From IMG/VR virus record IMGVR_UViG_3300020050_010385, positions 31,132-95,131 of that record: a stretch of 64,000 bases of DNA, one strand, 5' to 3'. The notes below the pieces were generated by a model. It was not told the origin of the DNA, did no database searches, and saw only the letters and a program-made list of their open reading frames with translations. Position numbers and translations under genes: made by a program. This document shows, one piece after another, positions 43,034-62,537 of the stretch. Position 1 is the first letter of the stretch; every line of letters begins with the position of its first letter. Source of the DNA: a virus (taxonomy: Duplodnaviria; Caudoviricetes).

Positions 43034-43811
43034 TAAACCACTTAAGGTATTAATTGCTTGTCCTACTTTAGGACTAGATCCAGATCCAGATCGCTGGCTT
43101 AATTCATTGCTCAAGATCCTTAATAATATTCGTCGTGAAGGTATTACTCATGCCCTATTTGCTCCTTATAGACAGAACTGGTGGCCTGCCAATAACGAGA
43201 TCTGGGATGTAGCTTTTGCTAATAAATTTGACTATATCCTTCGTATTGATGATGATATTCATGGAGTACCAGTGGATGGCTTTAGCAAATTATTTAATGC
43301 TAATAAGACGGTAATAGGAGCTGCTTATCCTAATCGTCGGTATCCATATACAGTACAGGCTATGCTAAGGAAAGATCCTTCTAAGAGCCTAATTGAGACA
43401 TTCGATAAGAATGAGCAGACACTTGAATCGGTACAATTCCATGGCTATACAGGTGATGATATTCAAAAGGTAGATCTAATTGGCTTTGGTATGACCCTAA
43501 TTAAAGTAGCTCCTTTTAAATATCTGGAAAGACCTATTTATAAGGGAGATGAAGTTTGTCCTGATGATTCTTATTTTGCTCAGATATGCCTAGATAATAA
43601 TATTCCTCAGTATGTGCACTGGGGAGTAAGACTTAATCATGCACATGTAAGCTTTGCTAATTCTGGTCATCTATTTAATGCTGATGTCTTGGCTGCTCAT
43701 CCTGGACTAAATGAAGATAGTAAGAATGTTTATTTAGCTGAACCACTGGATCCACCAAGTGATAATAACTTACCTAATAAAGAGTTTGAAATGAAAGGGG
43801 CAGATGCATGA
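43020..43811 (+). CDS. Glycosyltransferase (GT-A fold)
   Basis: KVLIACP, DYIL.IDDD, IGAAY..R, IGFGMTLIK, DD.YF...C, L.H. Confidence 0.75.
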   Translation: MQTNNKPLKVLIACPTLGLDPDPDRWLNSLLKILNNIRREGITHALFAPYRQNWWPANNEIWDVAFANKFDYILRIDDDIHGVPVDGFSKLFNANKTVIGAAYPNRRYPYTVQAMLRKDPSKSLIETFDKNEQTLESVQFHGYTGDDIQKVDLIGFGMTLIKVAPFKYLERPIYKGDEVCPDDSYFAQICLDNNIPQYVHWGVRLNHAHVSFANSGHLFNADVLAAHPGLNEDSKNVYLAEPLDPPSDNNLPNKEFEMKGADA

Positions 43812-45820: not shown

Positions 45821-46876
45821 ATGAATTACAAAGGTATTGAACCAGCTAAGTTCCAAAAAATGATGGAAGAGAAGTATAATACCAAGAAGTTCAGAGGATT
45901 GGAACTCATGAACGCTAATGGTGATATTGCTACTTCTTCTTTATCATACCAATATGCTACTGATCGTTTGACCTACATTCGTCAACGTATCGTGGAGCAA
46001 TCGTTCTATGAGATTAATCCTTCTGACTACTTTGATGTCATCCCTGGTGAAGGAGCATTCTCTGCTCAGATCATTACCCAGGCTTCCATCAAAACAGGAG
46101 CTAGTTTTAAATCTGGTAAGATCAACACGGCTGGTCATAACAGCAAATTAGCTACTGCTGATGCTGCTGTTACACCGTTCTACACCTACGTCCGTAACTG
46201 GGCCTTAGCTATCGAATACAGCATTTTCGATATTCAACAGGCTTTGTTCACGGGTTCTTGGGATCCAGTTGAAGCTAAAGAACGTGCCCGTAAAATGGAC
46301 TACGATCTTGGTATTCAGGAAATTGCCTTCTTAGGTGATACTGATGATCTTACAAACTTCCCTGGTCTCTATACTCAGCCGAATGTTAATATCAACACCA
46401 CGTTGATTCCAGCTGACATCCAGAGCATGAGCACAGCACAGTTCTCTACATTAGTTGCTGGTTTAATCGGTGCCTTCTTATCTAACTGTAATCAAACCCG
46501 GTTCCCGAATACGTTTATTATTCCTCAAGACGTATATGCAGGTTTGGCTACTCCTCTTTCTCAAACCTATCCTAACATTAGCATGTTGAATTACTTAACT
46601 CAGGCTTTCAATCAGATTGTCCCGAATGGTAATTTCAAGATCTTACCGTGTGCTTATGGTATGGATGATTACAATACGGTGGCTGGTGTCAATAAACAAC
46701 GCTACATCTTAATGCGTCGTGATATTGATACTGTCTTCCAAGAACTTCCGGTTGACTATCAAACAACGGCAGTTGGTACATTGAATAACTTCAACTTCCA
46801 GAACGTTGCCTATGCTCAATATGCAGGGGTTACGGCCTTGAAACCATTGGAGATCTTGTACTTAGATAAAACCTAA
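45821..46876 (+). CDS. Major capsid protein (DUF2184/encapsulin-like HK97 fold)
   Basis: IAFLG......PGL..P.V; P.T..IP; terminal G.....P....Y.D; AAGGAGG RBS. Confidence 0.88.
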   Translation: MNYKGIEPAKFQKMMEEKYNTKKFRGLELMNANGDIATSSLSYQYATDRLTYIRQRIVEQSFYEINPSDYFDVIPGEGAFSAQIITQASIKTGASFKSGKINTAGHNSKLATADAAVTPFYTYVRNWALAIEYSIFDIQQALFTGSWDPVEAKERARKMDYDLGIQEIAFLGDTDDLTNFPGLYTQPNVNINTTLIPADIQSMSTAQFSTLVAGLIGAFLSNCNQTRFPNTFIIPQDVYAGLATPLSQTYPNISMLNYLTQAFNQIVPNGNFKILPCAYGMDDYNTVAGVNKQRYILMRRDIDTVFQELPVDYQTTAVGTLNNFNFQNVAYAQYAGVTALKPLEILYLDKT

Positions 46877-46888
46877 TTACCATAGACT

Positions 46889-46922
46889 TGGGAGGGTGGG
46901 GAATAATAGTCCTGCCCTCCCA
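46889..46922 (+). promoter_or_regulatory. Stem-loop downstream of the capsid gene (copy B)
   Basis: TGGGAGGGTGGGG...TCCTGCCCTCCCA. Confidence 0.6.
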
Positions 46923-46941
46923 CAAATAAAAGGAGTTAACG

Positions 46942-47151
46942 ATGTATAGAATTACAAATGGTTCCAACCGGTCCTTTATCGTTAGGTCGGAAGATGTAAT
47001 CAAGGGAGCAAGTGCTGGGCATAAGAAGGAAGAAAAGATTATTGAACCTGGTAAGGGTATTATTGAAGTTACAGATAAGCTTGGTAAGAATTTAGTAAGC
47101 TATCCCGGAATTACCGTTATTGAAATTGTTAAAGAAACCAAAGGAAAATAA
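46942..47151 (+). CDS. Small virion-module protein, copy B
   Basis: Homolog of 247..462. Confidence 0.8.
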   Translation: MYRITNGSNRSFIVRSEDVIKGASAGHKKEEKIIEPGKGIIEVTDKLGKNLVSYPGITVIEIVKETKGK

Positions 47152-47152
47152 A

Positions 47153-47596
47153 ATGAGTTGGACACTACCAACCGTAGCTATTTTTAAGACTCAGTTTTAT
47201 CGAGACTTTCCTTATGCTCCAGATAGTGACTCAAGTAACCTAGATTATGTGATTGATCTAGACATTACCAATGCTATTAATGAAGCTTTTACTAACTTCA
47301 ATTATAGTTTATTTGGTGATCAGGCTGTTACGATATTTTTATATCTAGCAGCTCATACCTTAGTTACTAATATTAGAAATTCATCTATGGGCCTCTCATC
47401 TTTAGCAAAGTTTGCCTTAGAATCTAGTTCAGTTGGTGGAGTATCAATATCAAATAACATTAATGATAAGTTTGCAGGTGATCCTGCATTCTCTGGTTAT
47501 CTAACAACTGGTTATGGTAAGAAGTATTTAGATCTCGTCTATCCATATACAGTTGGAAACGTTGGCATAAGCTGTGGTATTACTACTGCTGCCTAA
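47153..47596 (+). CDS. Head-tail adaptor (DUF4054-like), copy B
   Basis: Homolog of 464..907. Confidence 0.75.
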   Translation: MSWTLPTVAIFKTQFYRDFPYAPDSDSSNLDYVIDLDITNAINEAFTNFNYSLFGDQAVTIFLYLAAHTLVTNIRNSSMGLSSLAKFALESSSVGGVSISNNINDKFAGDPAFSGYLTTGYGKKYLDLVYPYTVGNVGISCGITTAA

Positions 47597-47604
47597 GGAT
47601 TAAT

Positions 47605-48156
47605 ATGAGCTCCAAGGTTACCAAAATTGGAAATTCAAGTTCAGTTAAACTAGATCTAACTGGTCTTAAATCCTTGATAAAAAATATCAATTCTCAGTAT
47701 ACAGTTAAGGTTGGTATCCTTGGAGGAGATGCTACACAAGTCCATCAAAGAAAGGAAACAGGTGCATTAGCTAAAGGAGGCGGTCACAAGAAGGGTAAAA
47801 ATGACTCACCTACTACTAATGCTGAGATTGGTCTAGCTCATGAAAAGGGTATTAAGTCAAAGAATTTACCCAGACGTTCATGGCTTGAAGTACCACTACA
47901 GGATCACCTAAATGAATACTTTAAGAAGCTAGGGCCTGAAGTAATTTCTAATATGTTAGTCAATCAACCTAAATTAGCTTTTCAACACCTAGGGCTTGTT
48001 TGTGAGCAAATAATTTTAAAGGGCTTTGAGACTAATGGTTTTGGGAAGTGGAAAGCCCTTAAGCAGTCTACCATTAACGCTAAAGGATCAGACCGTATTC
48101 TAGTAGATACAGCACAACTTAAAAAATCTGTTACCTCTGAGGTTGTAAGTAAATGA
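47605..48156 (+). CDS. Neck/virion morphogenesis protein, copy B
   Basis: Homolog of 916..1467. Confidence 0.75.
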   Translation: MSSKVTKIGNSSSVKLDLTGLKSLIKNINSQYTVKVGILGGDATQVHQRKETGALAKGGGHKKGKNDSPTTNAEIGLAHEKGIKSKNLPRRSWLEVPLQDHLNEYFKKLGPEVISNMLVNQPKLAFQHLGLVCEQIILKGFETNGFGKWKALKQSTINAKGSDRILVDTAQLKKSVTSEVVSK

Positions 48157-48560
48157 TTAAGAATGGTAAAGACAAAGCTTTTGGACAATCATCTGCTGGA
48201 CTACCTGATGTCTCACCTGCTGTGATGAACTTATTTCAACCAGTAGCTGTAGGCATAATTAAAGCTACACAGATTAATGGATATACTCAAACTATTATTT
48301 CCAGCAGGATAAAGACTAAAGGCGTACGTATTCAAACCTCCAATCAACTAGTTATATCAAAGACCGGTGAAAGAATCTGGGACTCAGTTGAAATATACCT
48401 TTTAAATGATATTAACCTAGAGGCTGATGACTTATTTTTATTTCAAGGAATACAGTATCGAGTAGTGACTACTGAGGAGTGGTCAGAGTATGGCTATAAT
48501 AAATACTCAGTTGTCCAAGATTATACTAAAATTTATAACCCATTACCTAATGTCCTATGA
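48153..48560 (+). CDS. Head-closure/connector protein, copy B
   Basis: Homolog of 1464..1871. Confidence 0.6.
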   Translation: MIKNGKDKAFGQSSAGLPDVSPAVMNLFQPVAVGIIKATQINGYTQTIISSRIKTKGVRIQTSNQLVISKTGERIWDSVEIYLLNDINLEADDLFLFQGIQYRVVTTEEWSEYGYNKYSVVQDYTKIYNPLPNVL

Positions 48561-49129
48561 TTAGATCTGATGGTATACCACAAACTTCTCTTGACCTTTT
48601 ACGCCTGATTCTAATTAATCAAATGGGCCTAGAAGGTGATCGGGTTAATATTTATGATGAAAAATGGAAGATCCCAGCTTATGAAGATCTATTCATTACT
48701 CTAGAATATCGTAATGCTAGGTGCATAGCTAATCGTAATACCTTTATCTCTACCGGTGGAGATCCCATAGAAGAGCAGGATGTGAATATGCTTGAGAACA
48801 TTACGGTAGGAGTTTTCTCAAGAGACCGCTCAGCTATGCAAAGAAAAGAAGAAGTCTTAATGGCGATCATGTCACAATATGCTCAATTTATCCAGGAGTC
48901 TTATGCATTCAAAATAGCAAGAGTTGGTTCTATAGATGATCTTTCTAGCTTAGAGGGTGCTGCAATGCTGAAAAGATATGATATTAATTTAACTATATTT
49001 GCTTGGTATCAAAAGATTATTACAGCTAAATATATTTCACCTCCATTCCTAGTGAGAGTTACTGCTAATGATCCAGGAGTTGGAAAAATGACAAACCAAT
49101 TTACTCAGATATTAACTCAACCAACATAA
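48557..49129 (+). CDS. Tail terminator/completion protein, copy B
   Basis: Homolog of 1868..2440. Confidence 0.6.
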   Translation: MIRSDGIPQTSLDLLRLILINQMGLEGDRVNIYDEKWKIPAYEDLFITLEYRNARCIANRNTFISTGGDPIEEQDVNMLENITVGVFSRDRSAMQRKEEVLMAIMSQYAQFIQESYAFKIARVGSIDDLSSLEGAAMLKRYDINLTIFAWYQKIITAKYISPPFLVRVTANDPGVGKMTNQFTQILTQPT

Positions 49130-49142
49130 AGGAGCATAATGA

Positions 49143-50507
49143 ATGTCTACACTTCCACTAAGTAACGTAATTTCTGTGAATGTCTTTTTTCCACCTACTG
49201 GGGTGGGAGCATTCAATGTTAATAACTTAGCTTTATTTACCAGTGATGCTTTTCTAAGCAATCCGAGTCTTGATACTTATCGTGTTTATACTTCTGCCCA
49301 ACAAGTAGGAGTAGATTTTGGTACAACTACAGAAACCTATCAACAGGCAGTAGCGGTATTTTCTCAGCAGCCTAATATTCTAGCAGGTGGTGGTACTCTA
49401 ATTATCTTTCCGAGTTTTGTTAATAGTGCTATTAATGCTATTAGTATTGGAGCAGCTGGAACTGGCTATGTAATTGGTGATCTTCTTAATGTAGTTCAAG
49501 GATCAGCTTATGGTGGGGTAGTTAGGGTTACTACAGTATATGCAGGAGCAGTTACAGGAGTTACCTTAGTTTCAGGTGGTGCTGGCTACTCAGCAGCAGC
49601 TGGCTTAGCTACTACTGGTGGTACGGGTGGTGGATGTACTATTACTATTGCTTCAGTTACTACAGAAACATTAACTCAAGCCATTGCTCGGGTATCTGAA
49701 ATGGTTTACTTCTGTGGTATTATCTCAACAGCTTATGGACTAAATTCTACCTGGGCGGCATTAGCTACAGCAGTTCAGTCCTATGGTAATAAGCTTTTAT
49801 TCTTACCCTCTAATGCTCTTACTGATATTCCAGGGGTATTTACTACTATTAAAGATGCCACTAATTACTATACTCGGTGCCTATATTACTCAGGTACTGC
49901 TTTACAATCAAGACTATTTGCAGCGTCCTATGCAGCTAGACTCTTATCTGTAGACTTCACTGGATCATTTACTGCTATTACTATGAACCTTAAGCAGCTC
50001 TCAGGAGTTACAGCTGATAGTGGTATTAGTACTACAGTAGCTGCCTTATGTGCTACAGCTGGGGTTGATGTATATGGCTCCTATGCCAATGTGCCGGCTA
50101 CTATCTCAAATGGTACGAATAAATATGCAGATCAAGTATTCAATCTTATCTGGTTTGTCTTAGCTCTTCAAGTAGCTGGGTATAATGCTTTAGCTACCGT
50201 ATCGACTAAGATTCCTCAAACTGATAGTGGAATGAATCTTTATAAAGGAGCATTAAAACAAATTTGTGAACAGGCAGTTGCTAATGGGTATCTTGCTCCT
50301 GGTACTTGGACAGCGGTAGATACTTTTGGTAATCAGGCTGACTTCCTAAATAATATTCTTTCAAAGGGATACTATATTTATTCAGCTCCTATTAACCTAC
50401 AAACAGTAGCAGCTCGTGCAGCACGTCAAGCACCACTAGTTCAGATAGCAGTTAAAGAAGCTGGAGCTATTCAATCCAGTGTTATCAACGTATATGTTAA
50501 TCCGTAA
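49143..50507 (+). CDS. Contractile tail sheath, copy B
   Basis: Homolog of 2454..3818, same length. Confidence 0.88.
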   Translation: MSTLPLSNVISVNVFFPPTGVGAFNVNNLALFTSDAFLSNPSLDTYRVYTSAQQVGVDFGTTTETYQQAVAVFSQQPNILAGGGTLIIFPSFVNSAINAISIGAAGTGYVIGDLLNVVQGSAYGGVVRVTTVYAGAVTGVTLVSGGAGYSAAAGLATTGGTGGGCTITIASVTTETLTQAIARVSEMVYFCGIISTAYGLNSTWAALATAVQSYGNKLLFLPSNALTDIPGVFTTIKDATNYYTRCLYYSGTALQSRLFAASYAARLLSVDFTGSFTAITMNLKQLSGVTADSGISTTVAALCATAGVDVYGSYANVPATISNGTNKYADQVFNLIWFVLALQVAGYNALATVSTKIPQTDSGMNLYKGALKQICEQAVANGYLAPGTWTAVDTFGNQADFLNNILSKGYYIYSAPINLQTVAARAARQAPLVQIAVKEAGAIQSSVINVYVNP

Positions 50508-50527
50508 TTCTAAAGAAGGAGACGATA

Positions 50528-50983
50528 ATGTCAATTGTAGCAATGACTGGTAAAGATACTATTACTATCAACGGTCGAAACTTTAATGACTTTGCCGATG
50601 GTATAGTAGCAGAAATTGATTTCCCAAATGATGTAGTTCAAATGAAAACTGGAAAGAATGGTAATACAATTTATGGCCTTAACAATACTGGAAAACAATC
50701 AGGAGTAAATTTAAGACTAATCTTAGGCTCTTCAGATGATATTTTCTTAAATAATCTTTTATTAAACATGCAGGCTAACTTTGCTGGCTTTGCTTTAATG
50801 GCTGGTACCTTCGTTAAGAATGTTGGTGATGGAGCTGGTAATATTAAGTCGGTCACTTATGTTATGTCAGGTGGAGTATTTAAGGGAGCAGTCAAGGCCA
50901 TGGAAAATTCTGATGGTGATACCAATCAATCAGTTTCCGAATGGCGTCTATTATTTAGCAATGCGCCCAGAGCGATAGGTTAA
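50528..50983 (+). CDS. Tail tube protein, copy B
   Basis: Homolog of 3839..4294. Confidence 0.8.
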   Translation: MSIVAMTGKDTITINGRNFNDFADGIVAEIDFPNDVVQMKTGKNGNTIYGLNNTGKQSGVNLRLILGSSDDIFLNNLLLNMQANFAGFALMAGTFVKNVGDGAGNIKSVTYVMSGGVFKGAVKAMENSDGDTNQSVSEWRLLFSNAPRAIG

Positions 50984-50987
50984 GCCC

Positions 50988-51365
50988 ATGGAACCATTTA
51001 AAAAGACACTCGAGTCCGGAGCGGAATTGACCATCAGCCTAGCGTCTTTTCCGGAAGGACACCGTCTATTCAAAGCGGTAACAAAAGAATTACAAAGTAT
51101 TGATCTAGCTGAAGATACAGTTCAAAAGCTATCCATGCAATTAGTTTCCAGTGAGGCAATTGAACAAGCTTTATGGCCTTGCATGGCCAGAGCAACATAT
51201 GATGGCTTAAAGGTAAATCAGGAACTATTTGAAGACGCAAAAATAAGATGTGACTTTTTAGAAGTCATGAAGGAGGTACTTGGTTTTAACCTCGTCCCTT
51301 TCTCAAAAAACCTAGGTTCATTGTCAACAGCCATATTCCGAAAAGATATAAATATCCTAGAGTAG
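50988..51365 (+). CDS. Tail assembly chaperone (G form), copy B
   Basis: Homolog of 4299..4676. Confidence 0.75.
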   Translation: MEPFKKTLESGAELTISLASFPEGHRLFKAVTKELQSIDLAEDTVQKLSMQLVSSEAIEQALWPCMARATYDGLKVNQELFEDAKIRCDFLEVMKEVLGFNLVPFSKNLGSLSTAIFRKDINILE

Positions 51366-51541
51366 AAATACATGTTGACGAATCAATAGTTATTGTGCTT
51401 AGGTTAAGTAAAAATGGATATGGCAGTATTAAAGAATTAATGGAGTTACCATCTGAAATGGTTTTAGCAGCTTGGGAATATGATAACTTTATTCAGGATT
51501 TAGAAAGTGCCACTATGGAATTAAATAAGGACCAAAAATGA
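50988..51541 (+). CDS. Tail assembly chaperone, -1 frameshifted (GT form), copy B
   Basis: CCCTTTC 51296-51302 and AAAAAAC 51305-51311; -1 frame open to TGA 51539-51541. Confidence 0.75.
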
Positions 51542-52578
51542 AAGTAGCAGAATTATTCGCAGAGGTTGGTTTTAAATTTGATTCTATTAAATTAAGAGAA
51601 GTAGGTAAGTTACTCGGTGACCTTAACCTCTCTTCTATTATTGGTGCTACATCATTAACTGCTTTAGGACTAAAGATAGTTGATGTAATGGGAGCAGCTA
51701 GTAAAGCTTCAGTAGCACTATTAAACCTAAAACAAGCTACGGGATTAGACCCAGTTAGACTACAGCAACTTGATGTTTACTTTCAAAAATTTGGTGCTAG
51801 TGCAGGTGAAGCTCAACAAGCACTTTATAATTTGAATAAACTAAGACTAGAAGTTTTACAGGGTAAAGGAGATCCTCAGGCTTTTATTTTAACTGGCTTA
51901 TTACCCACTACTGATACTTTGAAACTCCTTGATCAAATTCATGAAAAGTTTAGCGATACTTCTTTCCTTAAGAATTGGGCTGGGTCATTTGCTCAAGGTG
52001 CACAATCTCTTCAAGAAATGAGAGCAGCCTGGAAAGATATGATAGCCAACCAATTTGGTATTCCTTCTAGTATGTTAAGAGGCCTAGATCAATCAAATGA
52101 AAAGTGGAGAGAGATGAGTAAGATCTTAGCCTTAAATGAGGAAGAGATTAGGCTCAATGCTGAAGTCCATGAGAAATGGGTTGCATCAATGAATGACCTA
52201 AATGTAGAAATACAAAAGGTAGTTACTAACCTTACTCCTATAGCTATTGAAGTATTAAAGATTGTAGATGCTGTAGTAATCCTAGAAAATAAATTTCAAG
52301 TTCTCGGTGGCTTTATTGAGAGACTAAAAATAATTGGTACTTTTACTAAAGCAGCTGCAGCAGATTTTAATAATTCCATACTGAGTAAGAGAGATAAGTT
52401 CAATAGGTTCTTGAATCCAGTTCCAGCTAATTCTCCCGCTGGTCAAAGTATGAAACAAACAAATAATGTTACTGTTCACGTCAATGCTAATAATCCCGAA
52501 GAGTTTGTAACTAAATTTGATTCGGTATTTAAAAAATATCTTTCTAACGCTGACATTCAATTCGGACAACAACGATGA
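51538..52578 (+). CDS. Tape measure protein (346 aa), copy B
   Basis: Homolog of 4849..5886. Confidence 0.75.
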   Translation: MKVAELFAEVGFKFDSIKLREVGKLLGDLNLSSIIGATSLTALGLKIVDVMGAASKASVALLNLKQATGLDPVRLQQLDVYFQKFGASAGEAQQALYNLNKLRLEVLQGKGDPQAFILTGLLPTTDTLKLLDQIHEKFSDTSFLKNWAGSFAQGAQSLQEMRAAWKDMIANQFGIPSSMLRGLDQSNEKWREMSKILALNEEEIRLNAEVHEKWVASMNDLNVEIQKVVTNLTPIAIEVLKIVDAVVILENKFQVLGGFIERLKIIGTFTKAAAADFNNSILSKRDKFNRFLNPVPANSPAGQSMKQTNNVTVHVNANNPEEFVTKFDSVFKKYLSNADIQFGQQR

Positions 52579-53465
52579 GCCTAAACTTAAACTTTGCTTC
52601 AAAGAAACCAAACTTAGTTCAGAATGCTGCTAATCTACTTTCTTCAGTAGTGAATCAAGCTATAGTTAGGCCACTAGGAATGCCCAATGTTGTAGGAGTT
52701 TCTGGGTTTGTAATGGACATACTTGATGATGAAGAAATAAGCTTAGACTCAGATATTACTGATCACTATGTAGAACAGAATTATGCTATACAAGACCACA
52801 TAGCACTAAGGCCGGTTAGGTTTTCTCTTAAGGGATTAGTAGGCGAACAAGTAGATACCATACCAAATTCTTTAGCTAGTATCTTTACCCAGGTAACTGG
52901 TCTTTCTACTTTGGGTGGACTAACTCCTCAATTCAATATCCAGGATGCTCAATTCTATGCTAAGGTAAATGATGTAGTTCAGTTAGGCACTAATGTTCTA
53001 AAGCAGGTAAAGAACGTATTTCAACTATTTGATCAATCCTCTACTACAACTAATAAGCAACAAACTGTATATCAGTTCTTCTACAATATGTGGAAAACTA
53101 GACAACTGTGCTCAGTAGAAACTCCATTTGCAGTATTTGAGAACATGGCCATAGAATCAGTTCGTGCCTATCAATCTGGGGATACTAACCTTATTAGTGA
53201 ATTTGTAGTTACCTTTAAACAAATACAAACGACTTCTACTACAGTCTTCTCTGGCAATACCAGTTCTATAGTAGCTCAGAACCTTGGGTCTATTTCTAAT
53301 TTACCTCGTGAGGCAGGCGGACGCTTTGAACAAATGACTTCTCAACCTGTAAGTTTAGGCACAGATCCTGGGAAGTCCAATGACTCAAATGGCAATTTAA
53401 TTTCAGTAGCAAATACTTCTCAAAATCTCTATATTCAACAAGCCGGTGCCCCAAATGAGTATTAG
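52575..53465 (+). CDS. Baseplate/tube-initiator protein, copy B
   Basis: Homolog of 5883..6773. Confidence 0.7.
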   Translation: MSLNLNFASKKPNLVQNAANLLSSVVNQAIVRPLGMPNVVGVSGFVMDILDDEEISLDSDITDHYVEQNYAIQDHIALRPVRFSLKGLVGEQVDTIPNSLASIFTQVTGLSTLGGLTPQFNIQDAQFYAKVNDVVQLGTNVLKQVKNVFQLFDQSSTTTNKQQTVYQFFYNMWKTRQLCSVETPFAVFENMAIESVRAYQSGDTNLISEFVVTFKQIQTTSTTVFSGNTSSIVAQNLGSISNLPREAGGRFEQMTSQPVSLGTDPGKSNDSNGNLISVANTSQNLYIQQAGAPNEY

Positions 53466-53468
53466 TCT

Positions 53469-53840
53469 ATGAAGCAGATAACCTCTTTAACTAATGATGC
53501 AAATCAAGTATTGGCCATCTTGCTAGATGATGGGACCAGGGTTAATATTACTCTAAGCTATTGCCCCAATCAGCTGGGATGGTTTTACTCCCTAACCTAC
53601 AATGACTTTGTAGTTAATAATCGTAGGATAGTTAATTCACCTAATATGCTAAGACAGTTCAGAGACATTATCCCATTTGGATTAGCCTGCTTAGTCGTAG
53701 ATGGTTATGAACCAATATACCAAAGTGATTTCGTAGATGGTAGAGCAGCATTATATATTTTAAATGAACTGGATTTAGTTGAGACTGAGACTTTAATAAC
53801 AATAACTTTACCAAACTTTGTAGGCTATCCCTTAAACTAA
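53469..53840 (+). CDS. Small baseplate protein, copy B
   Basis: Homolog of 6777..7148. Confidence 0.6.
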   Translation: MKQITSLTNDANQVLAILLDDGTRVNITLSYCPNQLGWFYSLTYNDFVVNNRRIVNSPNMLRQFRDIIPFGLACLVVDGYEPIYQSDFVDGRAALYILNELDLVETETLITITLPNFVGYPLN

Positions 53841-54781
53841 TGCCATTAATTACTAGCACAAATAAATTCCAGAGAACCTACACTATGCAAATTCAAGGCA
53901 TAGATGGTACCCTTTTCAATATAGGTTCCGAGAATGGTGAAAGCCTTCTAACTATGGAATTTTCTGTAAGACGTGATGTTTTAGCTTCTGCTCAATCAGG
54001 TACCTTTCGTATTCGTAATCTAAATTCCAGTATTAGATCACAGATTTATAAGGATTGGTTTGATACTGGAAGATTGCCTACACTAATAGTAAAAGCTGGG
54101 TACTTAAATACTCCTCTCTCTACCATATTTAATGGCATTGCTTTATCTATATCCTCATGTCGGGAAGAGGGAGGTACAGATTTTATTACTGAGATTGAAG
54201 CACAAGACTACTCATTAATCATGTCTAATAGCTTCTCTCATTGGACTATAGGGGACAATAGCAATCCAGTAAATCAAGAAGGAATAATTAATAGGCTGAT
54301 AGATGACCTTAAACTTACTGCTACTAAGTATGGTAAAACCCTTTCAACAGGGGTAGTAGGTGGCTTCTTAGCTAATCGTTATACCTATACCGCCAATGAT
54401 TATACCTGGAATCTACTACAGGTAGAAACTAATAGGCTTTCATATATTGATAATGGAAAAATCTATTGCCTACCTAACAATTATGTATTTGAAGGTGATG
54501 TTAATTTGGTATCTTCTGAGACTGGGCTGCTGGGTAGTCCTCGCAGATACCAAAGTAATCTAGTAGCCGAAATGGTATTTGAACCTTCTATTATTCCTGG
54601 ACAACAGATTTACCTAGATACAAATTTAGATAAGTCTTTTAATAGCTCTCAGAATGGAACCTATAAGGTTACAGGAGTTCAACATGCCGGAGTAATTTCT
54701 TCAGCTGTAAGTGGTAAATGTAAGACGCTAATAACTATGCAACTTATTGGAACTCCCTTTGTGGCAAGGTTTGGATTATGA
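53840..54781 (+). CDS. Baseplate hub protein, copy B
   Basis: Homolog of 7148..8089. Confidence 0.78.
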   Translation: MPLITSTNKFQRTYTMQIQGIDGTLFNIGSENGESLLTMEFSVRRDVLASAQSGTFRIRNLNSSIRSQIYKDWFDTGRLPTLIVKAGYLNTPLSTIFNGIALSISSCREEGGTDFITEIEAQDYSLIMSNSFSHWTIGDNSNPVNQEGIINRLIDDLKLTATKYGKTLSTGVVGGFLANRYTYTANDYTWNLLQVETNRLSYIDNGKIYCLPNNYVFEGDVNLVSSETGLLGSPRRYQSNLVAEMVFEPSIIPGQQIYLDTNLDKSFNSSQNGTYKVTGVQHAGVISSAVSGKCKTLITMQLIGTPFVARFGL

Positions 54782-55806
54782 CAGATAATATTTCAAATAA
54801 TAGGTATATAGTACCAGACTTAACTGAGTTTCTTTCTAGAAGAATGAATGACATTTCAGCAAGAATTAATTGCTTGACTATGGGGACGATCATCTCTTTT
54901 AATGCCACTAATCAAACGGCAATAGTCTCGGTTAATTTCCAGAAGGTAATAAAAGGAGTAAACCCTACTAGTATTGTTGGTGAAGTTTCAGATATGGTTA
55001 TTAATTATCCCACTTTAGTAAATGTACCAGTAGCCTTTATGAATGGAGGAGGTGGATATTTAACCTTCCCGATTACTCCAGGAGATACTTGTATTTTATT
55101 ATTTTGTGATCGTGATATGGATATCTGGTTTGCTACTGGACAGGTAGTTCCACCAAACTCTGAAAGACTACATGATATAAATGATGCTGTTGCTTTAATA
55201 GGTATAAGAAACCTACAGCAATCATTAGTAGGATATTCAACTACTCAAGTACAGCTAAACTTTCCAACTGGCCTAGTAACAGTAAATGACTTAACCGGGG
55301 AAAGACTAAATCAAGCTGGATTCCTTCAGCCTTATGCGGGATCAACTGCTCCCTCAGGCTGGTTATTGTGCTATGGTCAAGCTATCAGTCGTACTACCTA
55401 TGCTACGCTCTTTGCCATTATAGGCACAACCTATGGTTCTGGAGATGGATCAACTACCTTTAATGTACCAGACTTAAGAGGCCGTACAGTAGCTGGCCTT
55501 GATAATATGGGTGGTTCCAATGCTAATGTTTTAACTAATGCCTACAACCCTAATAGAAATACCTTAGGTGGTAATACTGGAGAAGAAGCCCACCAACTTA
55601 GTATTCCAGAGATGCCAGAACATGATCACCCCGGTAGTACTGCTAATACTAGAAATGACTCCTCAGCTGCTGGTGGTGCTGATGCAGCAGTTCAAGCTCA
55701 ATTAATCAATAGTCTTATAAACGTTACAGTAGCTCCTCAAGGTAGTGACACACCTCACCAGAACGTTCAACCTACAAAGATGGTTAATTGGATTATAAAA
55801 ATATGA
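54778..55806 (+). CDS. Gp138-type spike fused to a tail-collar domain, copy B
   Basis: Homolog of 8086..9114. Confidence 0.85.
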   Translation: MTDNISNNRYIVPDLTEFLSRRMNDISARINCLTMGTIISFNATNQTAIVSVNFQKVIKGVNPTSIVGEVSDMVINYPTLVNVPVAFMNGGGGYLTFPITPGDTCILLFCDRDMDIWFATGQVVPPNSERLHDINDAVALIGIRNLQQSLVGYSTTQVQLNFPTGLVTVNDLTGERLNQAGFLQPYAGSTAPSGWLLCYGQAISRTTYATLFAIIGTTYGSGDGSTTFNVPDLRGRTVAGLDNMGGSNANVLTNAYNPNRNTLGGNTGEEAHQLSIPEMPEHDHPGSTANTRNDSSAAGGADAAVQAQLINSLINVTVAPQGSDTPHQNVQPTKMVNWIIKI

Positions 55807-56168
55807 TCATTAGAGCATTAGATATAAATCACGATTGGACATTTGGTAAGGGTAAAGAGAACTACCTATCAGCTCAATTAGCTATTGCTGAGAATATCCA
55901 GACGAGAATATTATCATTTTTTGGTAATTGCTTTTTTGATATGTCAGCTGGTATTGAGTGGTTCACTCTTTTAGGTACTCCTAATAGTGACCAGCAAATC
56001 CTATTAAATGTCAGAGCTATAATCCTTCAATCCTATGGAGTTGTAAGTGTGAATAGTTTAACACTAAATTCTACTAACTCTAGTCGTAGAGCAACTCTGA
56101 CTTACAACATAAATACTATCTATACTCAAAATTATACCCAAACCTTAGAGGTAGTCCCAAATGTCTAA
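55803..56168 (+). CDS. Baseplate wedge (gp25-like), copy B
   Basis: Homolog of 9111..9476. Confidence 0.7.
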   Translation: MIIRALDINHDWTFGKGKENYLSAQLAIAENIQTRILSFFGNCFFDMSAGIEWFTLLGTPNSDQQILLNVRAIILQSYGVVSVNSLTLNSTNSSRRATLTYNINTIYTQNYTQTLEVVPNV

Positions 56169-57336
56169 TCAAATAACAGCAGCTGGAATTCAAATTGAAA
56201 CCTTTGAACAAATTGTAGCAAATATCACTAATGGTACTTCAGATACTCCTGGTTTGATTCAGATTTACGGGGCTGATATTAACGTGGCCTCAAATTCACC
56301 AGATGGACAAATGATTAATATCTATGCTCTTTCAAAAATGGATATTTTAAATCTCTGTGTAGCTATCTATAATTCCATGGATCCAGATCAAGCTGTGGGA
56401 GTATCATTAGACCGTATTGCTCAAATTTCAGGATTGACAAGGAAGCCGGGAACTTATACACAAGTGGCCATCGATGTGGTAACTAACCAGAGTGTTAACC
56501 TGAACGGACTTGATACTTCCACTCCCTTTACTATACAGGACTCTAATGGTAATTTATTCTACCTTATTACTTCAGCTTCTCTTTCTTCTGGAACTACTAG
56601 CCTTAGTTTCCAATCAGCAGCAATTGGTTTTATCCAGGTATTGGCAAATACTTTAACTACTCCAGTAACAATTGTAGCCGGGGTAGTGAGTGTAAATAAT
56701 CCAGCAGTTCCTACTCAAGTAGGTACGAATCAAGAGACGGATGCTAATTTCAGATTACGTCGACAAGCTTCTACTGCTTTCCCAGCACAAAGTTCTTTGA
56801 AGGCTCTCTTTTCAGGACTAAATTCTCTGGTAGGAGTAACTGAGGCTGTAGTTTATGAGAATACTACTAATGCAGTAGATGCTGATGGTATTCCAGCACA
56901 TGGCATTTGGGTAGTTACTGACGGAGGTACAGCAGCACTAATTGGAGAAACAATTTATACTTATCGGAACTTAGGTATACCGATGAAAGGAACCTTAACT
57001 TACGTTATTACTCAAGTAGATCTTTCAACTATTACTATGCAATATGATTCAGCAGTAAATGAAAATCTTTACCTACAGGCAACTCTAGTTTCCATTAGTG
57101 GTTCAGCCATTGATCGGACGGCAATAAAAGAAGCTCTAGTAACTAACTACATTTTAGGTATTTATGATCCAGCAGATGTTTCAACTCTAAATATACAGAT
57201 CAGAGCTATTAACCCAGATGTAGTTTGCTCAGGATTAGGAGTTTCTAATGATGGAGTTACCTGGGTAAATCTTTTGAGTCCCTTATCTAAAAAGAATAAA
57301 TTTGTTCTATCAACCGCTAGAATAACGTTGAGCTAA
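56161..57336 (+). CDS. Baseplate J-like protein, copy B
   Basis: Homolog of 9469..10644. Confidence 0.88.
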   Translation: MSNQITAAGIQIETFEQIVANITNGTSDTPGLIQIYGADINVASNSPDGQMINIYALSKMDILNLCVAIYNSMDPDQAVGVSLDRIAQISGLTRKPGTYTQVAIDVVTNQSVNLNGLDTSTPFTIQDSNGNLFYLITSASLSSGTTSLSFQSAAIGFIQVLANTLTTPVTIVAGVVSVNNPAVPTQVGTNQETDANFRLRRQASTAFPAQSSLKALFSGLNSLVGVTEAVVYENTTNAVDADGIPAHGIWVVTDGGTAALIGETIYTYRNLGIPMKGTLTYVITQVDLSTITMQYDSAVNENLYLQATLVSISGSAIDRTAIKEALVTNYILGIYDPADVSTLNIQIRAINPDVVCSGLGVSNDGVTWVNLLSPLSKKNKFVLSTARITLS

Positions 57337-57340
57337 AGCC

Positions 57341-57943
57341 ATGACACTAACTGAAGCACTAGACTATTATGCAAATCAATTAATTATCCAATATGCCGAA
57401 TTACCTAAGGCAAAAGATACCATTAAGTGCCTAGTGAACAATGCTGCTTGTGATGGATTAGTCTTTTCTCTTCAAGATGCTTTTAATCTAGACACAGCTT
57501 CTGGTCAACAACTAACCATCTTAGGAAATATTGTAGGAGTTCCCAGAGAAATATTTGGCCTTGATCTTACCCATGAATTTTTTAATTTTACTAGGTACTC
57601 AGGAGTTCCAGCTAGTATTGGATTTAATCGCTTTAGTACTCCAACAGATACTTACTATATTTCACGTTGGCAAACTACAACTTCATATACCACTACAGAC
57701 TTTGAATTACTATCACTAATAAAGATTAAGATCATTGCTAACAATAATTATACTTCTTTGAAAACTATTAAGGAAGCTTTATATGAGATCTTTGAAGGAG
57801 CAATAGACGTGGTAGATAACCTTGATTATACTATTACTTATAATCTACAAAATCCGTACCATAACGTTGGAACAATTTGTGCTTTTCTTGGCAACATACT
57901 ACCTAAACCAATGGGCGTAGGTATCACGATTGTTAATATCTAG
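57341..57943 (+). CDS. Baseplate protein (DUF2612-like), copy B
   Basis: Homolog of 10649..11251. Confidence 0.8.
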   Translation: MTLTEALDYYANQLIIQYAELPKAKDTIKCLVNNAACDGLVFSLQDAFNLDTASGQQLTILGNIVGVPREIFGLDLTHEFFNFTRYSGVPASIGFNRFSTPTDTYYISRWQTTTSYTTTDFELLSLIKIKIIANNNYTSLKTIKEALYEIFEGAIDVVDNLDYTITYNLQNPYHNVGTICAFLGNILPKPMGVGITIVNI

Positions 57944-57952
57944 GAGAATTAA

Positions 57953-58798
57953 ATGGCAAAGCTACTTAGAAAAACACTATTACAATTCGGGAGCACAGTA
58001 AATGCTGGATCTGAAATTGGTCAGTTTGGTTCTTATGCTGCTCCAATATATTCAGCAGATATTGCTACTCTACAAGCAGGAACTGCCTGGCCAAGAGGTT
58101 GGGCAGCTGAAACAATAGCAACCAATCGACCTTTTCTTGAAGACATGAATGCAGTAGACTATGTCTATGGCTATATGCTGGCCTACTTACTTCAAATGGG
58201 TATTCCCGAATATGACTCAGCAACAACCTATTACCTTGATAGCTATGTTCAGATTGCTGGACAGATCTACCAATCACTTGCAGACAACAACACTGGTAAT
58301 GCTCCTGCTTCTTCTCCTGCAAGTTGGCAGCCTGGTATTGGTGCTAAGAACACTGAGACTTCAGGGGTTGTAAAGATGTTTGCTGGAGCAATTGCTCCTA
58401 CTGGCTATTTAATATGTAACGGTGCCGCAGTTAGTAGAGCGACCTATGCAGCCCTTTTTGCAATTTGCGGTACAACTTATGGTGCAGGAGATGGGGCAAC
58501 AACCTTCAATATTCCAGACTTAAGAGGAAATGTAGCAGTAGGATATAAAGCAGCTGATTCTGATTTTGGTACTCTAGGAGCGAACCCTGGAGCAAAGACA
58601 CATACCTTAACTACCTCAGAAATGCCAGCACATAGTCACTCTACCTGGTATGCTCATAACTCTGGAAGCGGTAGTGAATCTCCGGCAGGTGGTAGTAATA
58701 CCAATAGACAAGACGCTTCTACTTCAACTGAAGGTGGTGGAAATGCACACAATAATATTCAACCTTCATTGGTTCTTAATTACATCATCAAAACTTAA
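57953..58798 (+). CDS. Tail fibre with collar domain, copy B
   Basis: Homolog of 11261..12106. Confidence 0.85.
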   Translation: MAKLLRKTLLQFGSTVNAGSEIGQFGSYAAPIYSADIATLQAGTAWPRGWAAETIATNRPFLEDMNAVDYVYGYMLAYLLQMGIPEYDSATTYYLDSYVQIAGQIYQSLADNNTGNAPASSPASWQPGIGAKNTETSGVVKMFAGAIAPTGYLICNGAAVSRATYAALFAICGTTYGAGDGATTFNIPDLRGNVAVGYKAADSDFGTLGANPGAKTHTLTTSEMPAHSHSTWYAHNSGSGSESPAGGSNTNRQDASTSTEGGGNAHNNIQPSLVLNYIIKT

Positions 58799-58807
58799 GG
58801 ATCTTAT

Positions 58808-59179
58808 ATGCAGAATAATTGTGAAGTAGCTATCGATATCGTAAGAGGAACAGATTTTTATTTACCAATTATTTATATGGTAAGTGTAGAATCGATCGGA
58901 CTAAAATATCCAGTTAATATCACTGGGTACAGTGTGCAAATGCAGGTAAGACCAACGGTGGGTTCTACGGGTACACCACTAGTGAATATTTCTACGGCAC
59001 TGGGTACAATTTTAATTGATGGACCAAATGGAAAAATAGAATTATTAATCCCTAAAAGCGTAACCACTACTCTTCCAGTAGGAAGCTGGAGTTATGATGT
59101 TTTAGTAACAAACGTAAGTGGGTGGACAGAACAAATTATTTTCGGGACGGCTAATGTTATTGAAAGGACTACTAAATGA
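58808..59179 (+). CDS. Ig-like fibre adaptor, copy B
   Basis: Two aa differences from 12116..12487. Confidence 0.6.
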   Translation: MQNNCEVAIDIVRGTDFYLPIIYMVSVESIGLKYPVNITGYSVQMQVRPTVGSTGTPLVNISTALGTILIDGPNGKIELLIPKSVTTTLPVGSWSYDVLVTNVSGWTEQIIFGTANVIERTTK

Positions 59180-59691
59180 ATCCAGGAATAGTGCTACTAC
59201 AACAGCAGAAAGTAATTGAGGCACTATCTCAATTTCCCATTCTACCCCAGTATCGAAACTTCTCGATTGTCGCTACTTCAGACGGACAAACGGATTTTGA
59301 ACTTGACGACTATCCGGTATTGACTGGAATTATTTCCGTGAACATAAATGGGATAGCTCAGGATCCTTTAAACGGAGATTACACTATTTTGGACAGTACC
59401 CTGACTGTAAGTCCTGGAAGAGACATCGGAGACAAGGTGGCTGGTTTTTATCAAGTCATGACTCCGGTGGTGGGGGCTAATGTTCTTAATTTTGCCTCGT
59501 ACTATGAATTGGTCGGCACAGCTAGCAAGACCGTATTCACACTTTCTTTCCAGCCTAACCCTATTGTGTACGTAGCAGTGAACGGAGTTGTACAAGACAA
59601 CTTAGACTATACAATAAATGGTTACACATTAACCTTGAACGTAGGATTAGATATAAACGATAAACTATATGTAGTCGGAATTAACAGCTAA
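59176..59691 (+). CDS. Fibre-associated two-repeat protein, copy B
   Basis: One aa difference from 12484..12999. Confidence 0.6.
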   Translation: MNPGIVLLQQQKVIEALSQFPILPQYRNFSIVATSDGQTDFELDDYPVLTGIISVNINGIAQDPLNGDYTILDSTLTVSPGRDIGDKVAGFYQVMTPVVGANVLNFASYYELVGTASKTVFTLSFQPNPIVYVAVNGVVQDNLDYTINGYTLTLNVGLDINDKLYVVGINS

Positions 59692-59701
59692 GGAGAAACA
59701 A

Positions 59702-62509
59702 ATGAAAAAATGGTTTTTAAGTTTACTTGCAATCCTACTTTCGTCATCTTTAGCTTTTGCTGATACGAGAGTCCCAGCCAAGGACGTGACAGTTAATACG
59801 TCTACCTTCGGAGACAATATACCTGTCAACGCAAACACAGTCCAAAAGGCTCTTCAGGCTGTCAACGATGCCACCTTTGGTGGTACCCCAGCAGGTTCTA
59901 CTGGGCAGTTTCAGTATAATAACGGAGGGATCTTTGCTGGCGGTAACATGCTTTACACGGACGGTACAAACATCGGGATTGGTAATGCTTCCCCAACCCA
60001 GAAACTGGACGTTACTGGAACTGTGAAAGCCACCACGTTTAGTGGTAGTGGTTCGGGATTAACCTCCATTCCTGCAGCGCAACTTTCTGGACAGGTGCCC
60101 TTAGCTAACGGTGGTACTGGTCTTTCTAGTGCTGCTGATGACGCTACTGTGGTATCTAATGGTACAGCATTTCAGGCTACGATACTTCCTTCGTGTACTG
60201 ACTCTGGAGGGAACCATTTGAACTATGATGCTACTACGAATTCATTTAGTTGTGGAACTAGTAGTGGAGGAGGTAGTCAGGTTACTGGAGCCTTCACACA
60301 GCTGACATCTTGTCCAGCTGACATTGTAGCTTATATGGCAGCATTACCAGAAAGTACAAGAGTTCAATTTCCTGCGGGATGTTCATATACTCTTACTACC
60401 GCTTCAACGGTTGAAATTCCTAGCGGTGTGTGGGTAGACTTTGCTAATACTCTATTTAATAGAACAGCTACGGCTGCAGCTATTATTACAGCTACTACCA
60501 AAGACGTAACTAAACCTATGTATATTGGTAATGTCCGTTGCACGGGAGCCTTTGCTACTTCGTGTATAAGTATTAATCAAAATGCTGGTACGGTGGGTAG
60601 CGAAAATGCTTTCATATTAAGGAATATTCAGTTTGATTTTACTCCCGATGCCTCCATGACAACTGTTTACGGTTTTGTTATTAACGATTCAGGTTACGTA
60701 ATCGATGGAGTACGTGGGAATATTTTAACTTCTTCAGCAACAACAAGCGCATGGGGTATTCGTACTCCGATGAATTCAACTGCAGAAGCAGACATGTCGG
60801 GGTCAATCAATGATTGGAACGTTAGAGTTGATTGCCAATCCTACGCACCGACTTTCTGTAGAGGTCTTGATGTTGCCTACCAGAACGCATCCGCAGGCGG
60901 AAGTTTATTTAATACGTATGCAAAGGTAAGTAATTTTTATAGCTATGCTCACTCTGGTGGTGCGACCGGAACAGGTGAAGCCTGTAAGGTTACCAATGAC
61001 TCAGGGCATGGAACAGTAAACGAAACCTGGTGGTCTAACGGGGTATGTGATGGGGTATCTTCTGACTTCCGTGACGGTTCTGGATTTGGTGATCCAGTAA
61101 TAGCCCATATTGATAACGTGGAATTCACGAACGGTAAATACTCCCTCAAATCAACGGGTACTTATACTCTAAAGGGATCTTCTGGAAAGACAAGTAACTT
61201 TTGGACAATTAGTTCTAGTGCAACTACTTCAATAGACTCACAGAGCTACATAGCTCCTTTTATAGCCTATGTTGTTGCTACCAACGATCGAGTTTACTTC
61301 CCACCATCAATGCAATTCAATGCGGCTCTCTCTATTACTAAGTCGGTACACCTGATTGGAAGCGGTACTGATGGATGTACTCACATAGCTACTTACGGAG
61401 GAACAAACACACAGCTTTTCAATGTTACAGCAGACAACGTTTCTATTGAAAATTTCTGCTTAGATCTTATCGGAGGTTGGAGCGGAATCCTGGTTAACGG
61501 TACGGGGGGAACCAGCCTTGCTAGTGTTAATCTCAGGAATATTAAAATTAATAAACCAACTGCAAGCGGTAACAGTACGGGAATTATATACAATGACGCT
61601 GGAGGATCAATCTATAATCCAGTAATCAACATAGCTTGTGCCTCTGGAACCTGTCTCGGTATTTCTAGTACACAAGCTTCTACTTTAGATGCGGTCTCCA
61701 CTCTGAGTGTGTATAGTCCGAATATTATCATTCCAGCGACTACCGGGGTATCTAAGGCGTTTGAATTTACGGATACCGGAGCTACGTTTGCTTCTACCTT
61801 CAACGTGTACGGAGGATACTATCGTACCAGTAAATCCACAGGATCAGCCTACGGTATTTACGCTAGTGGTCCACTGATTACGGCTAACCAATACGGTCTC
61901 ATGGGAGCAGCTGATACCATAAACACGTACGCAGTAAATGACGCCGTCATCAATAGCAATTCTTCTCCGTTCATTTCTCCACTTACTATCGGAGGATCTG
62001 GAATTTCTGCCTCAGGGTTCTCTTCATTCGCAGGAGGAATTAATCTACCCAGTGGTCAAGAATACGCTTCAAACGGAGTACAACTTAATTACACTATCTC
62101 GGCCTACGCTGCAGGTACCGTGTACTCATTAACTAACGCTTCAGCAGCAGTAACCTTTGGGACTACTTCTCCAGTAATAACCATTGATCAACCTGGAACG
62201 TATCGATTAAACGCTAGTGCACAGCTTAAGTATAATGCTGCTACATTTGCAGCACCGCAAACAGCCACGTGTCTTCTCTATCGTACGAACAATACCGCTG
62301 GAGCATTAACCAATGCCACACGTACGGTGGACTTAAGAATACTAAGTGCAATCACGGATAGTGCAGGCTTAGTTGCTATTCCAGAAATTCAGTATATCAC
62401 AACGAATTACAACGATCAAATCCAACTCTATTGCGGAATGTCAGCGGCTACTGGAGGAGGAACGGTGGACGTTGTTTCAGCTAATGTTATTGCTAAACTT
62501 GACTATTAA
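59702..62509 (+). CDS. Signal-peptide-bearing tailspike/adhesin (allele B), probably two beta-helix segments
   Basis: First about 120 aa near-identical to 13010..15379; centre unrelated and Cys-rich; last about 130 aa homologous (Y.LTNASA...[29 protein letters not shown]). Confidence 0.75.
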   Translation: MKKWFLSLLAILLSSSLAFADTRVPAKDVTVNTSTFGDNIPVNANTVQKALQAVNDATFGGTPAGSTGQFQYNNGGIFAGGNMLYTDGTNIGIGNASPTQKLDVTGTVKATTFSGSGSGLTSIPAAQLSGQVPLANGGTGLSSAADDATVVSNGTAFQATILPSCTDSGGNHLNYDATTNSFSCGTSSGGGSQVTGAFTQLTSCPADIVAYMAALPESTRVQFPAGCSYTLTTASTVEIPSGVWVDFANTLFNRTATAAAIITATTKDVTKPMYIGNVRCTGAFATSCISINQNAGTVGSENAFILRNIQFDFTPDASMTTVYGFVINDSGYVIDGVRGNILTSSATTSAWGIRTPMNSTAEADMSGSINDWNVRVDCQSYAPTFCRGLDVAYQNASAGGSLFNTYAKVSNFYSYAHSGGATGTGEACKVTNDSGHGTVNETWWSNGVCDGVSSDFRDGSGFGDPVIAHIDNVEFTNGKYSLKSTGTYTLKGSSGKTSNFWTISSSATTSIDSQSYIAPFIAYVVATNDRVYFPPSMQFNAALSITKSVHLIGSGTDGCTHIATYGGTNTQLFNVTADNVSIENFCLDLIGGWSGILVNGTGGTSLASVNLRNIKINKPTASGNSTGIIYNDAGGSIYNPVINIACASGTCLGISSTQASTLDAVSTLSVYSPNIIIPATTGVSKAFEFTDTGATFASTFNVYGGYYRTSKSTGSAYGIYASGPLITANQYGLMGAADTINTYAVNDAVINSNSSPFISPLTIGGSGISASGFSSFAGGINLPSGQEYASNGVQLNYTISAYAAGTVYSLTNASAAVTFGTTSPVITIDQPGTYRLNASAQLKYNAATFAAPQTATCLLYRTNNTAGALTNATRTVDLRILSAITDSAGLVAIPEIQYITTNYNDQIQLYCGMSAATGGGTVDVVSANVIAKLDY

Positions 62510-62537
62510 ATTAATTAATATAAAGGAGATTTAAAAT

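Follow-up and report, generated by a model that had tools for sequence, protein, structure and literature searches.

A lineage-specific deficit of CG dinucleotides in one of two sister phages found in a single metagenomic record

How do two sets of phage virion genes that encode closely similar proteins come to differ so strongly in a single dinucleotide? The question is raised by IMG/VR record IMGVR_UViG_3300020050_010385 (Caudoviricetes), a sequence of 95,131 bp listed as one linear entry. The stretch analyzed here, hereafter the window, comprises its bases 31132-95131 (64,000 nucleotides), and coordinates are window positions unless marked 'record'. Self-comparison of the record revealed two syntenic units, phage A and phage B, each with a replication arm (record 4960-22500, minus strand, in A; record 52300-68300 in B) and a packaging, head and tail arm (record 22574-47992, plus strand, in A; record 69092-95131 in B). 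The structural arm of A begins upstream of the window, which opens with its virion part, from head-tail connector to tail fiber (1-16741, plus strand), syntenic with 46700-64000 of B. An earlier, sequence-only reading described the B genes at 46942-58600 as a synonymous copy of those of A with few CG dinucleotides (CpG), shaped either by CpG methylation or modified cytosine, or by selection against CG sites. We find that the CpG depletion of B is a real, lineage-specific trait, in which about 60% of CG dinucleotides were lost, and that its target is the dinucleotide in DNA as such: all codon contexts, intergenic DNA and every NCGN word are affected.

The contrast is already plain in the adaptor gene, where the hand count of about 23 versus about 5 CG made from the letters proved exact (23 CpG at 464-907 in A, 5 at 47153-47596 in B), GpC numbering 17 and 16 in the same intervals. 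The three hexamer pairs quoted as examples (TACGCT/TATGCT, AACGCA/AATGCT, TCGGTT/TCAGTT) and the TTGG/TTAG changes are all present. Along the window, the observed-to-expected ratio (o/e) of CpG stays near 1.0 over 1-22000 and lies at 0.32-0.54 over 22001-58000, and that of GpC is about 1 throughout. Expressed as a symmetrized odds ratio (rho), CpG is 1.02 in the structural arm of A, 0.45 in that of B, and 0.34 in the replication arm of B, which had also been suspected of being CpG-poor; GpC stays at 0.86-1.12 over these regions. As had been remarked too, AGCT (o/e 2.16) and GGCC (o/e 1.60) are still common in B.

A general fall of G+C at third codon positions (GC3) from 0.40 to 0.25 accounts for about half of the raw CpG drop, and the CpG-specific remainder is about two-fold. 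With GC3 controlled, in 25 orthologous genes, A has a CpG o/e of 1.01 at codon junctions (positions 3-1) and B one of 0.46; CpG o/e is thus not similar in the two lineages, and the depletion survives this control. In the same genes, the share of NCG codons in B is 0.050, compared to a share of 0.075 for third-position G in other fourfold codons (0.181 versus 0.195 in A), and CGN codons make up 43% of arginine codons in B and 70% in A. When the synonymous codons of the 16 genes in 47120-58798 were shuffled, keeping the codon usage of each phage, B had 148 CpG versus 245.6±9.2 expected (z = -10.6), and A, with 513 versus 499.8±10.8 (z = +1.2), was at expectation. Between genes, CpG o/e amounts to 0.35 in B, compared to 1.06 in A. 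The deficit of B is uniform over coding positions and non-coding DNA, with a junction o/e of 0.40-0.50, an NCG ratio of 0.3-0.6, 23-44% of arginine codons being CGN, and the same intergenic value of 0.35.

To determine which of the two lineages changed, we used three outgroups, thirty additional members of the family and a tree of proteins. Across about 3,880 codons of 17 orthologous genes, B has 153 CpG, compared to 524 in A and to 456, 635 and 373 in relatives L003, L004 and L005, respectively; GpC ranges from 405 to 509 in all five. The GC3 of L005 is nearly that of B (0.264 versus 0.248) despite this difference in CpG. CpG rho is 0.92-1.21 in the three outgroups and 0.74-1.32 in the structural arms of the thirty other members, including some with a G+C content as low as 0.38-0.39. 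As these are CpG-normal, and as the concatenated protein tree, ((A,B),L003,(L004,L005)) with support 1.0, agrees, the loss is placed on the B branch: the proposal that lineage B is derived and depleted, and that A is not, holds.

Elsewhere, the signature is not rare. In a clade of syntenic, B-type replication arms, CpG is 0.25-0.72 (0.25 in L018, whose record has no homologous sheath, 0.41 in L016, 0.48 in L015 and L008, and 0.72 in L014). Among 69 PolA-related IMG/VR loci with a G+C content of 0.32-0.40, the median CpG is 0.43, with ApG/CpT at 1.1-1.3 and TpA at about 0.9-1.0. The signature of B is therefore common in low-GC uncultured phages, yet unusual for this virion family, and its deficit resembles the CG shortage ordinarily met in many low-GC phages.

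The depletion does not cover the whole of B. CpG changes in sharp steps at about 22,430-22,510 and about 58,700, coinciding with jumps to 94-97% identity to A-type DNA. B is a mosaic of a 36-kb CpG-poor backbone (22,510-58,700), an 11-kb CpG-normal tail-fiber and accessory cassette, and small islands. The backbone includes the packaging, head and tail arm at 37254-58700 (plus strand; rho about 0.45, and 0.15-0.5 in most 600-nucleotide windows), within which the region first singled out, 46942-58600, is contained. In this arm, the Mu F-like head morphogenesis gene (42027-43200, plus strand), which is 92% identical to that of A, forms a CpG-normal island (o/e 0.90). The distal-tail and tail-fiber cassette (58700-64000, plus strand) is CpG-normal as well (rho 0.81); its first 1.3 kb are 96-97% identical to A and are followed by divergent fiber genes (40-47% amino acid identity), and these divergent alleles of B are likewise CpG-normal. 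In a circular reading of the genome, the cassette most likely continues in region X with its three minus-strand genes (16862-22500; CpG o/e 0.6-1.0), so that 58,700-64,000 plus 16,741-22,500 make one block of 11 kb (0.6-1.0) carrying distal-tail genes, fibers and small genes. The junction at 58592-60742 is not confined to this record: L012 and L013, from other metagenomes, match it at 100%. A graded relation between A-B identity and CpG content was considered and rejected: the rank correlation over 600-nucleotide windows is weak (rho 0.21, p 0.19), and the pattern is block-wise instead, since the divergent fiber alleles are also CpG-normal. A decay of CpG still under way in the newly imported segments might be read from their CpG-only counts (10 versus 3 and 18 versus 9), but those of GpC lean the same way (5 versus 2 and 12 versus 3).

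Are A and B parts of one molecule? Describing them as two copies is misleading: most likely the assembler joined two circular genomes, each of about 47-48 kb, into one 95-kb record. The longest exact match between the A and B parts, a repeat of 121 nucleotides (16741-16861, plus strand; record 47872-47992), is identical to the last 121 nucleotides of the record (63880-64000) and reaches its final base, as a likely joining node of the assembly. Relatives are found on contigs of 45-51 kb, none approaching 95 kb, and in one 48-kb IMG/VR relative (L104/L131) the sheath gene is divided between both contig ends, as expected of a circular or permuted genome. B also occurs alone: L006, a JGI contig of 43.3 kb, matches B at 96-98.5% identity, carries no A, and covers 21320-24247 at about 96%. 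Contigs from other samples (L007, L008 and L011-L013) confirm the junctions of B and, in L011, B-type fibers run on into X-like sequence (94.6% identity). The assembly graph would then have been a figure 8, two circles with one shared repeat, read out as X', A, repeat, X, B and again the repeat, where it stopped; under this reading, region X (about 16,860-22,500) belongs to B. It is very improbable that the record is instead one real molecule, that is, a tandem heterodimer or a genome with two diverged structural arms, with the CpG contrast lying inside a single replicon. In its favor are the single linear entry in IMG/VR and a short contig from an independent run that spans the 40-nucleotide element between X and the B side (20985-21024, described below), but this contig sits within what is probably B's own genome, and the exact internal repeat at the record end, the unit genome size and the finding of B alone elsewhere all argue against it. 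Four runs assembled over the X/B junction gave contigs of 150-590 nucleotides at a depth of 2-4, which tile both sides at 99-100% identity but do not extend far enough to link or phase A and B.

We give a probability of about 60% to the following explanation as a whole, in which the cause of the depletion is the part that we infer. A and B would be separate sister genomes of about 47-48 kb, threaded together by the assembler through a shared repeat. The backbone of B would have replicated for a long time in a host lineage or cellular regime that disfavors CpG, and would have reached a CpG-poor equilibrium; more recently, B would have imported a host-range (tail-fiber) cassette and islands from the CpG-normal pool of its family, which have not yet been eroded. 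The CpG content of phages is known to resemble that of their hosts (PMC11282364), an effect for which the same pressure would be responsible, and the divergent fibers are compatible with different hosts for A and B. Several points weigh against this explanation. Low G+C alone does not explain B, as family arms at a G+C content of 0.38-0.39 are CpG-normal. A and B turn up together in individual runs, both at a comparably low depth, and share exchanged segments of 92-97% identity; because of this co-occurrence and recent exchange, their hosts must be, or once have been, shared at least in part, and a strict assignment to different hosts becomes less convincing. Finally, a 95-kb tandem molecule, although most unlikely, would be compatible with the short reads and contigs. 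As for the hosts themselves, a PolA-based scan of genome contigs gave no match, nor did a sheath scan, whose peptide patterns were overly narrow. Thermophily, an idea suggested by PMC11282364, was rejected as the cause for want of specific support: pieces identical to B are found in activated-sludge and wastewater runs too, and not in digesters alone.

As modified cytosine had been proposed for lineage B, the nucleotide metabolism of the phages bears on the alternatives. The replication arm of B (22510-37000, minus strand), its most CpG-poor part, encodes DnaB, primase, a thymidylate synthase (TS)-like enzyme, dCMP deaminase, PolA, an SSB-like protein, a PD-(D/E)XK nuclease, a MazG/dUTPase_2-like NTP pyrophosphatase and an endoV-like glycosylase. 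The TS homolog (29586-30293, minus strand; counterpart in A at record 17247-18047, minus strand) is divergent and predicted to act on dCMP. In both phages it scores far below the NCBIfam TS cut-offs; it has the catalytic cysteine (IPCS), and a PYD motif aligns to PFN of TS, placing an aspartate at the position equivalent to E. coli N177, which governs dUMP/dCMP specificity. The aspartate is conserved in L006, L014, L015 and L018. An Asn-to-Asp substitution at this position marks dCMP hydroxymethylases, and the N-to-D change shifts TS towards dCMP. Together with the dCMP deaminase, the NTP pyrophosphatase and a glycosyltransferase, this makes modified cytosine plausible across the whole family, as judged from gene content. 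The proposal does not discriminate: A, L014, L015 and L018 carry such an enzyme as B does, at CpG levels that, with B, range from 0.25 to 1.0. Because the enzyme is present whatever the CpG level, modified cytosine fails to account for the difference between the two phages. In the same arm, the PolA of the B clade (26609-28423, minus strand; 604 amino acids) is without the domain of the uracil-DNA glycosylase (UDG) superfamily (PF03167) found in relatives (42-51% identity, about 750-820 amino acids), and the SSB-like gene of B contains short imperfect repeats (25570-25732, minus strand; a 49-nucleotide family, TCATC-rich on the plus strand).

The main mechanism put forward for the deficit, methylation of CpG and its erosion by deamination of 5-methylcytosine, would involve a host enzyme similar to M.SssI or M.MpeI. 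The substitutions seem to speak for it, as far as their tally goes: of the 894 CpGs present in A only, 53% are TG or CA in B (TG 346, CA 124) and 28% are AG or CT, in line with the CG/TG and CG/CA changes that had been noted. At fourfold sites, however, A and B are only 44.5% identical, which is near saturation, and the tally therefore mostly reflects codon degeneracy and equilibrium composition rather than events: C3 to T3 is the sole synonymous change at twofold sites, which yields the TG majority, and coding constraint puts TG far above CA. What is asymmetric is the loss itself, 894 CpGs lost versus 278 gained, compared to 382 versus 392 for the GpC control. A reciprocal excess of TpG/CpA was not seen: CA/TG rho is 0.87-1.03 in B (0.95-0.99 in A) and TG o/e at codon junctions is 0.92-1.00, the dinucleotide gain of B lying in AG/CT (1.24-1.33) and CC/GG. 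Fourfold C is retained less often before G than before other bases (0.15 versus 0.30), but it is not replaced by T more often there (0.49 versus 0.50); it is replaced by A more often (0.30 versus 0.18). Among close B strains (B versus L006 and L007), CpG sites are 2.3 times more variable than other C/G sites, as deamination would have it, but the share of transitions is 70% at CpG sites versus 85% at other C/G sites, transversions being relatively enriched at CpG; both comparisons rest on small numbers. A search for a C5-methyltransferase (PF00145) in six frames of the 95-kb record found no match at E<=1, the control being positive in 12 of 14 genomes. Because these dinucleotide, fourfold-site, strain and PF00145 results point the same way, they argue against deamination of 5-methylcytosine as the driver; it is not a likely cause of the deficit, and we consider the methylation account as a whole quite improbable.

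Selection against CG sites fares differently according to how it is put. All ten distinct NCGN words (reverse-complement pairs being counted once) and CGCG are depleted in B (o/e 0.04-0.67), most strongly in GCG/CGC and least in CCG/CGG contexts, but avoidance of NCGN words beyond the trinucleotide level was not seen in B: maximal-order Markov z scores are -2.1 to +3.3, and none of these words is among the most under-represented. The signal therefore lies at the di- and trinucleotide level and not at particular sites, and selection against specific CG-containing restriction sites, as first worded, is not upheld. In a broader form, a nuclease or other defense that reads CG, and that may depend on modification, would have selected against CpG in the B lineage, A not having met this pressure. 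Such selection would fit a depletion that is strong, uniform and present in non-coding DNA too, the variability of CpG sites among close B strains through transitions and transversions alike, the replacement by ApG and not by the mutational product TpG, and the set of enzymes (TS-like, dCMP deaminase, NTP pyrophosphatase, glycosyltransferase) that suggests modified cytosine. It accords poorly with the lack of any word-specific signal once trinucleotides are accounted for, with the normal CpG tolerated over 11 kb of cassette, and with the spread of the signature through unrelated low-GC phages, which is a better fit to a general regime than to one system; avoidance of the McrA-type site YCGR, considered as a specific candidate, was rejected, as YCGR words are the least depleted NCGN words in B. 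We hold a CG-reading defense to be unlikely, and its more specific form, direct selection on B by a defense that reads CG in cytosine-modified phage DNA, to be more doubtful still. The bias could also be intrinsic to the phage, arising from mutation by B's own PolA, which lacks the UDG-like insert, and from its different TS-like enzyme. The depleted backbone does accompany the B-type replication arm, itself the most depleted part, but relatives with the same gene set span 0.25-0.72 and the TS-like Asp enzyme is present at any CpG level. Loss of the PolA insert was rejected as a cause, as L015 retains it and is nonetheless at 0.48; an intrinsic bias has, in our view, little chance of being the explanation.

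Beyond their CpG content, A and B are myoviruses whose tail is of the phi1422/E217 type; they are found together in digester and wastewater samples, and the runs containing the sequence come from anaerobic digesters, activated sludge and wastewater. Identity between their structural arms is 79-83% for DNA and 87-98% for protein, while amino acid identity is only 24-44% in the replication arms and 40-47% in the fiber proteins. The structural genes are those for the small and large terminase subunits (terS, terL), the glycosyltransferase, a Methyltransf_24 protein, portal, the Mu F-like protein, protease/scaffold, major capsid protein, a contractile tail of E217/Pam3 type and fibers; the replication-side genes of the two phages are DnaB, primase, PolA, SSB-like, nuclease, dCMP deaminase, TS-like and NTP pyrophosphatase genes. 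The glycosyltransferase and Methyltransf_24 genes are inserted between terL and portal in A, B and L003 (39178-40417, plus strand, and record 23707-25021), a site occupied in L005 by radical-SAM and epimerase genes instead. Collar-domain tail proteins form a set of paralogs with about 39% mutual amino acid identity (8086-9114, 11261-12106 and, on the minus strand, 18338-18760; B counterparts at 54778-55806 and 57953-58798), and they explain a family of 147-nucleotide repeats spaced 3,046 nucleotides apart. No tRNA genes were found. Just before each replication arm lies a conserved, CpG-containing leader of 40 nucleotides with a Shine-Dalgarno sequence and ATG (GGAGAGGTGAAGAGATG), at 20985-21024 (minus strand) and record 4920-4959. 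The two copies, 47,196 bp apart, are identical at 39 of 40 positions, and the coding sequences downstream differ; the leader may act as a regulatory element common to both phages, or mark a site of recombination. Upstream of the window, record 1-4920 is unlike the rest of A in being CpG-enriched (o/e 1.2-1.5); it encodes RusA, a protein similar to phage replication protein O and a DUF5681 protein, and may represent the terminal part of an X region belonging to A itself.

How do these phages compare to known systems? Their nearest cultured relative is Bdellovibrio phage phi1422, which has a similar genome size (45 kb) and a sheath homologous over its full length, but at 37% amino acid identity is very distant; megablast of B against cultured phages gave no nucleotide match, and the Pfam E217/Pam3 tail families were matched. 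Phages are mosaics, and the composition of DNA that they import is gradually ameliorated. B conforms to this in its sharp compositional borders at recombination junctions and in an imported host-range cassette that retains the signature of its donor, but its marker is one dinucleotide and not G+C content or codon usage. Like genomes in which CpG is eroded by methylation and deamination (vertebrates; Mycoplasma penetrans with M.MpeI; M.SssI-type enzymes), B combines strong CpG under-representation with normal GpC; it differs from erosion driven by methylation in having no TpG/CpA excess, no CpG-specific transition bias and, in the record, no C5-methyltransferase gene. Avoidance of restriction sites is shown by phage A (1-16800; record 4960-48000), in which CCGG has a Markov z of -7.7 and CTAG, CGCG and GGCC have o/e values of 0.37, 0.46 and 0.67. 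B differs from it: no CG-containing palindrome is depleted beyond the trinucleotide prediction, and neither CTAG (o/e 1.29) nor GGCC, common as it is, is avoided. With the deoxycytidylate hydroxymethylase pathway of T4 (gp42, dCTPase gp56, cd and glucosyltransferases), the phages share a predicted TS-fold enzyme with aspartate at the Asn177 equivalent, a dCMP deaminase, an all-alpha NTP pyrophosphatase and a glycosyltransferase. They differ from T4 in that a dNMP kinase was not found and that the two genes between terL and portal, for the glycosyltransferase and the methyltransferase, could serve other roles; the predicted pathway is present in both A and B, and hence unrelated to their CpG contrast. 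B is also comparable to the host-resembling CpG content of phages and the lineage-specific CpG depletion of bacteria (Forni et al., NAR Genom Bioinform 2024, PMC11282364, and earlier work of these authors that it cites): the deficit is likewise genome-wide, at the dinucleotide level, untied to methylation or to restriction-modification sites, variable between lineages and partly associated with G+C. Here, however, the contrast is between co-occurring sister phages with 90% identical virion proteins, and other low-GC members of B's family are CpG-normal.

The CpG deficit of B is, therefore, a new example of a known phenomenon, and the methylation mechanism proposed for it is unsupported. More generally, a CpG deficit accompanied by many CG-to-TG differences is no evidence for methylation, as codon degeneracy gives the same tally. 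On the practical side, the 95-kb IMG/VR record should be flagged as probably two genomes. For the family, the TS-like enzyme with its dCMP-type aspartate hints at a modified cytosine. If a CG-reading defense did act on modified DNA, the A/B pair, which shares a habitat and modules, would be a natural experiment on the purging of CpG in prokaryotic viruses, and the CpG-normal fiber cassette would serve as its internal clock. The comparison is a clean one in any case: near-saturated synonymous sites behind those virion proteins, an approximately 2.5-fold difference in CpG, identical GpC, and CpG-normal imports with sharp borders in a CpG-poor genome. Why bacteria and their phages become depleted in CpG has yet to be explained (PMC11282364), and A and B offer a natural sister-pair system in which to address this question.

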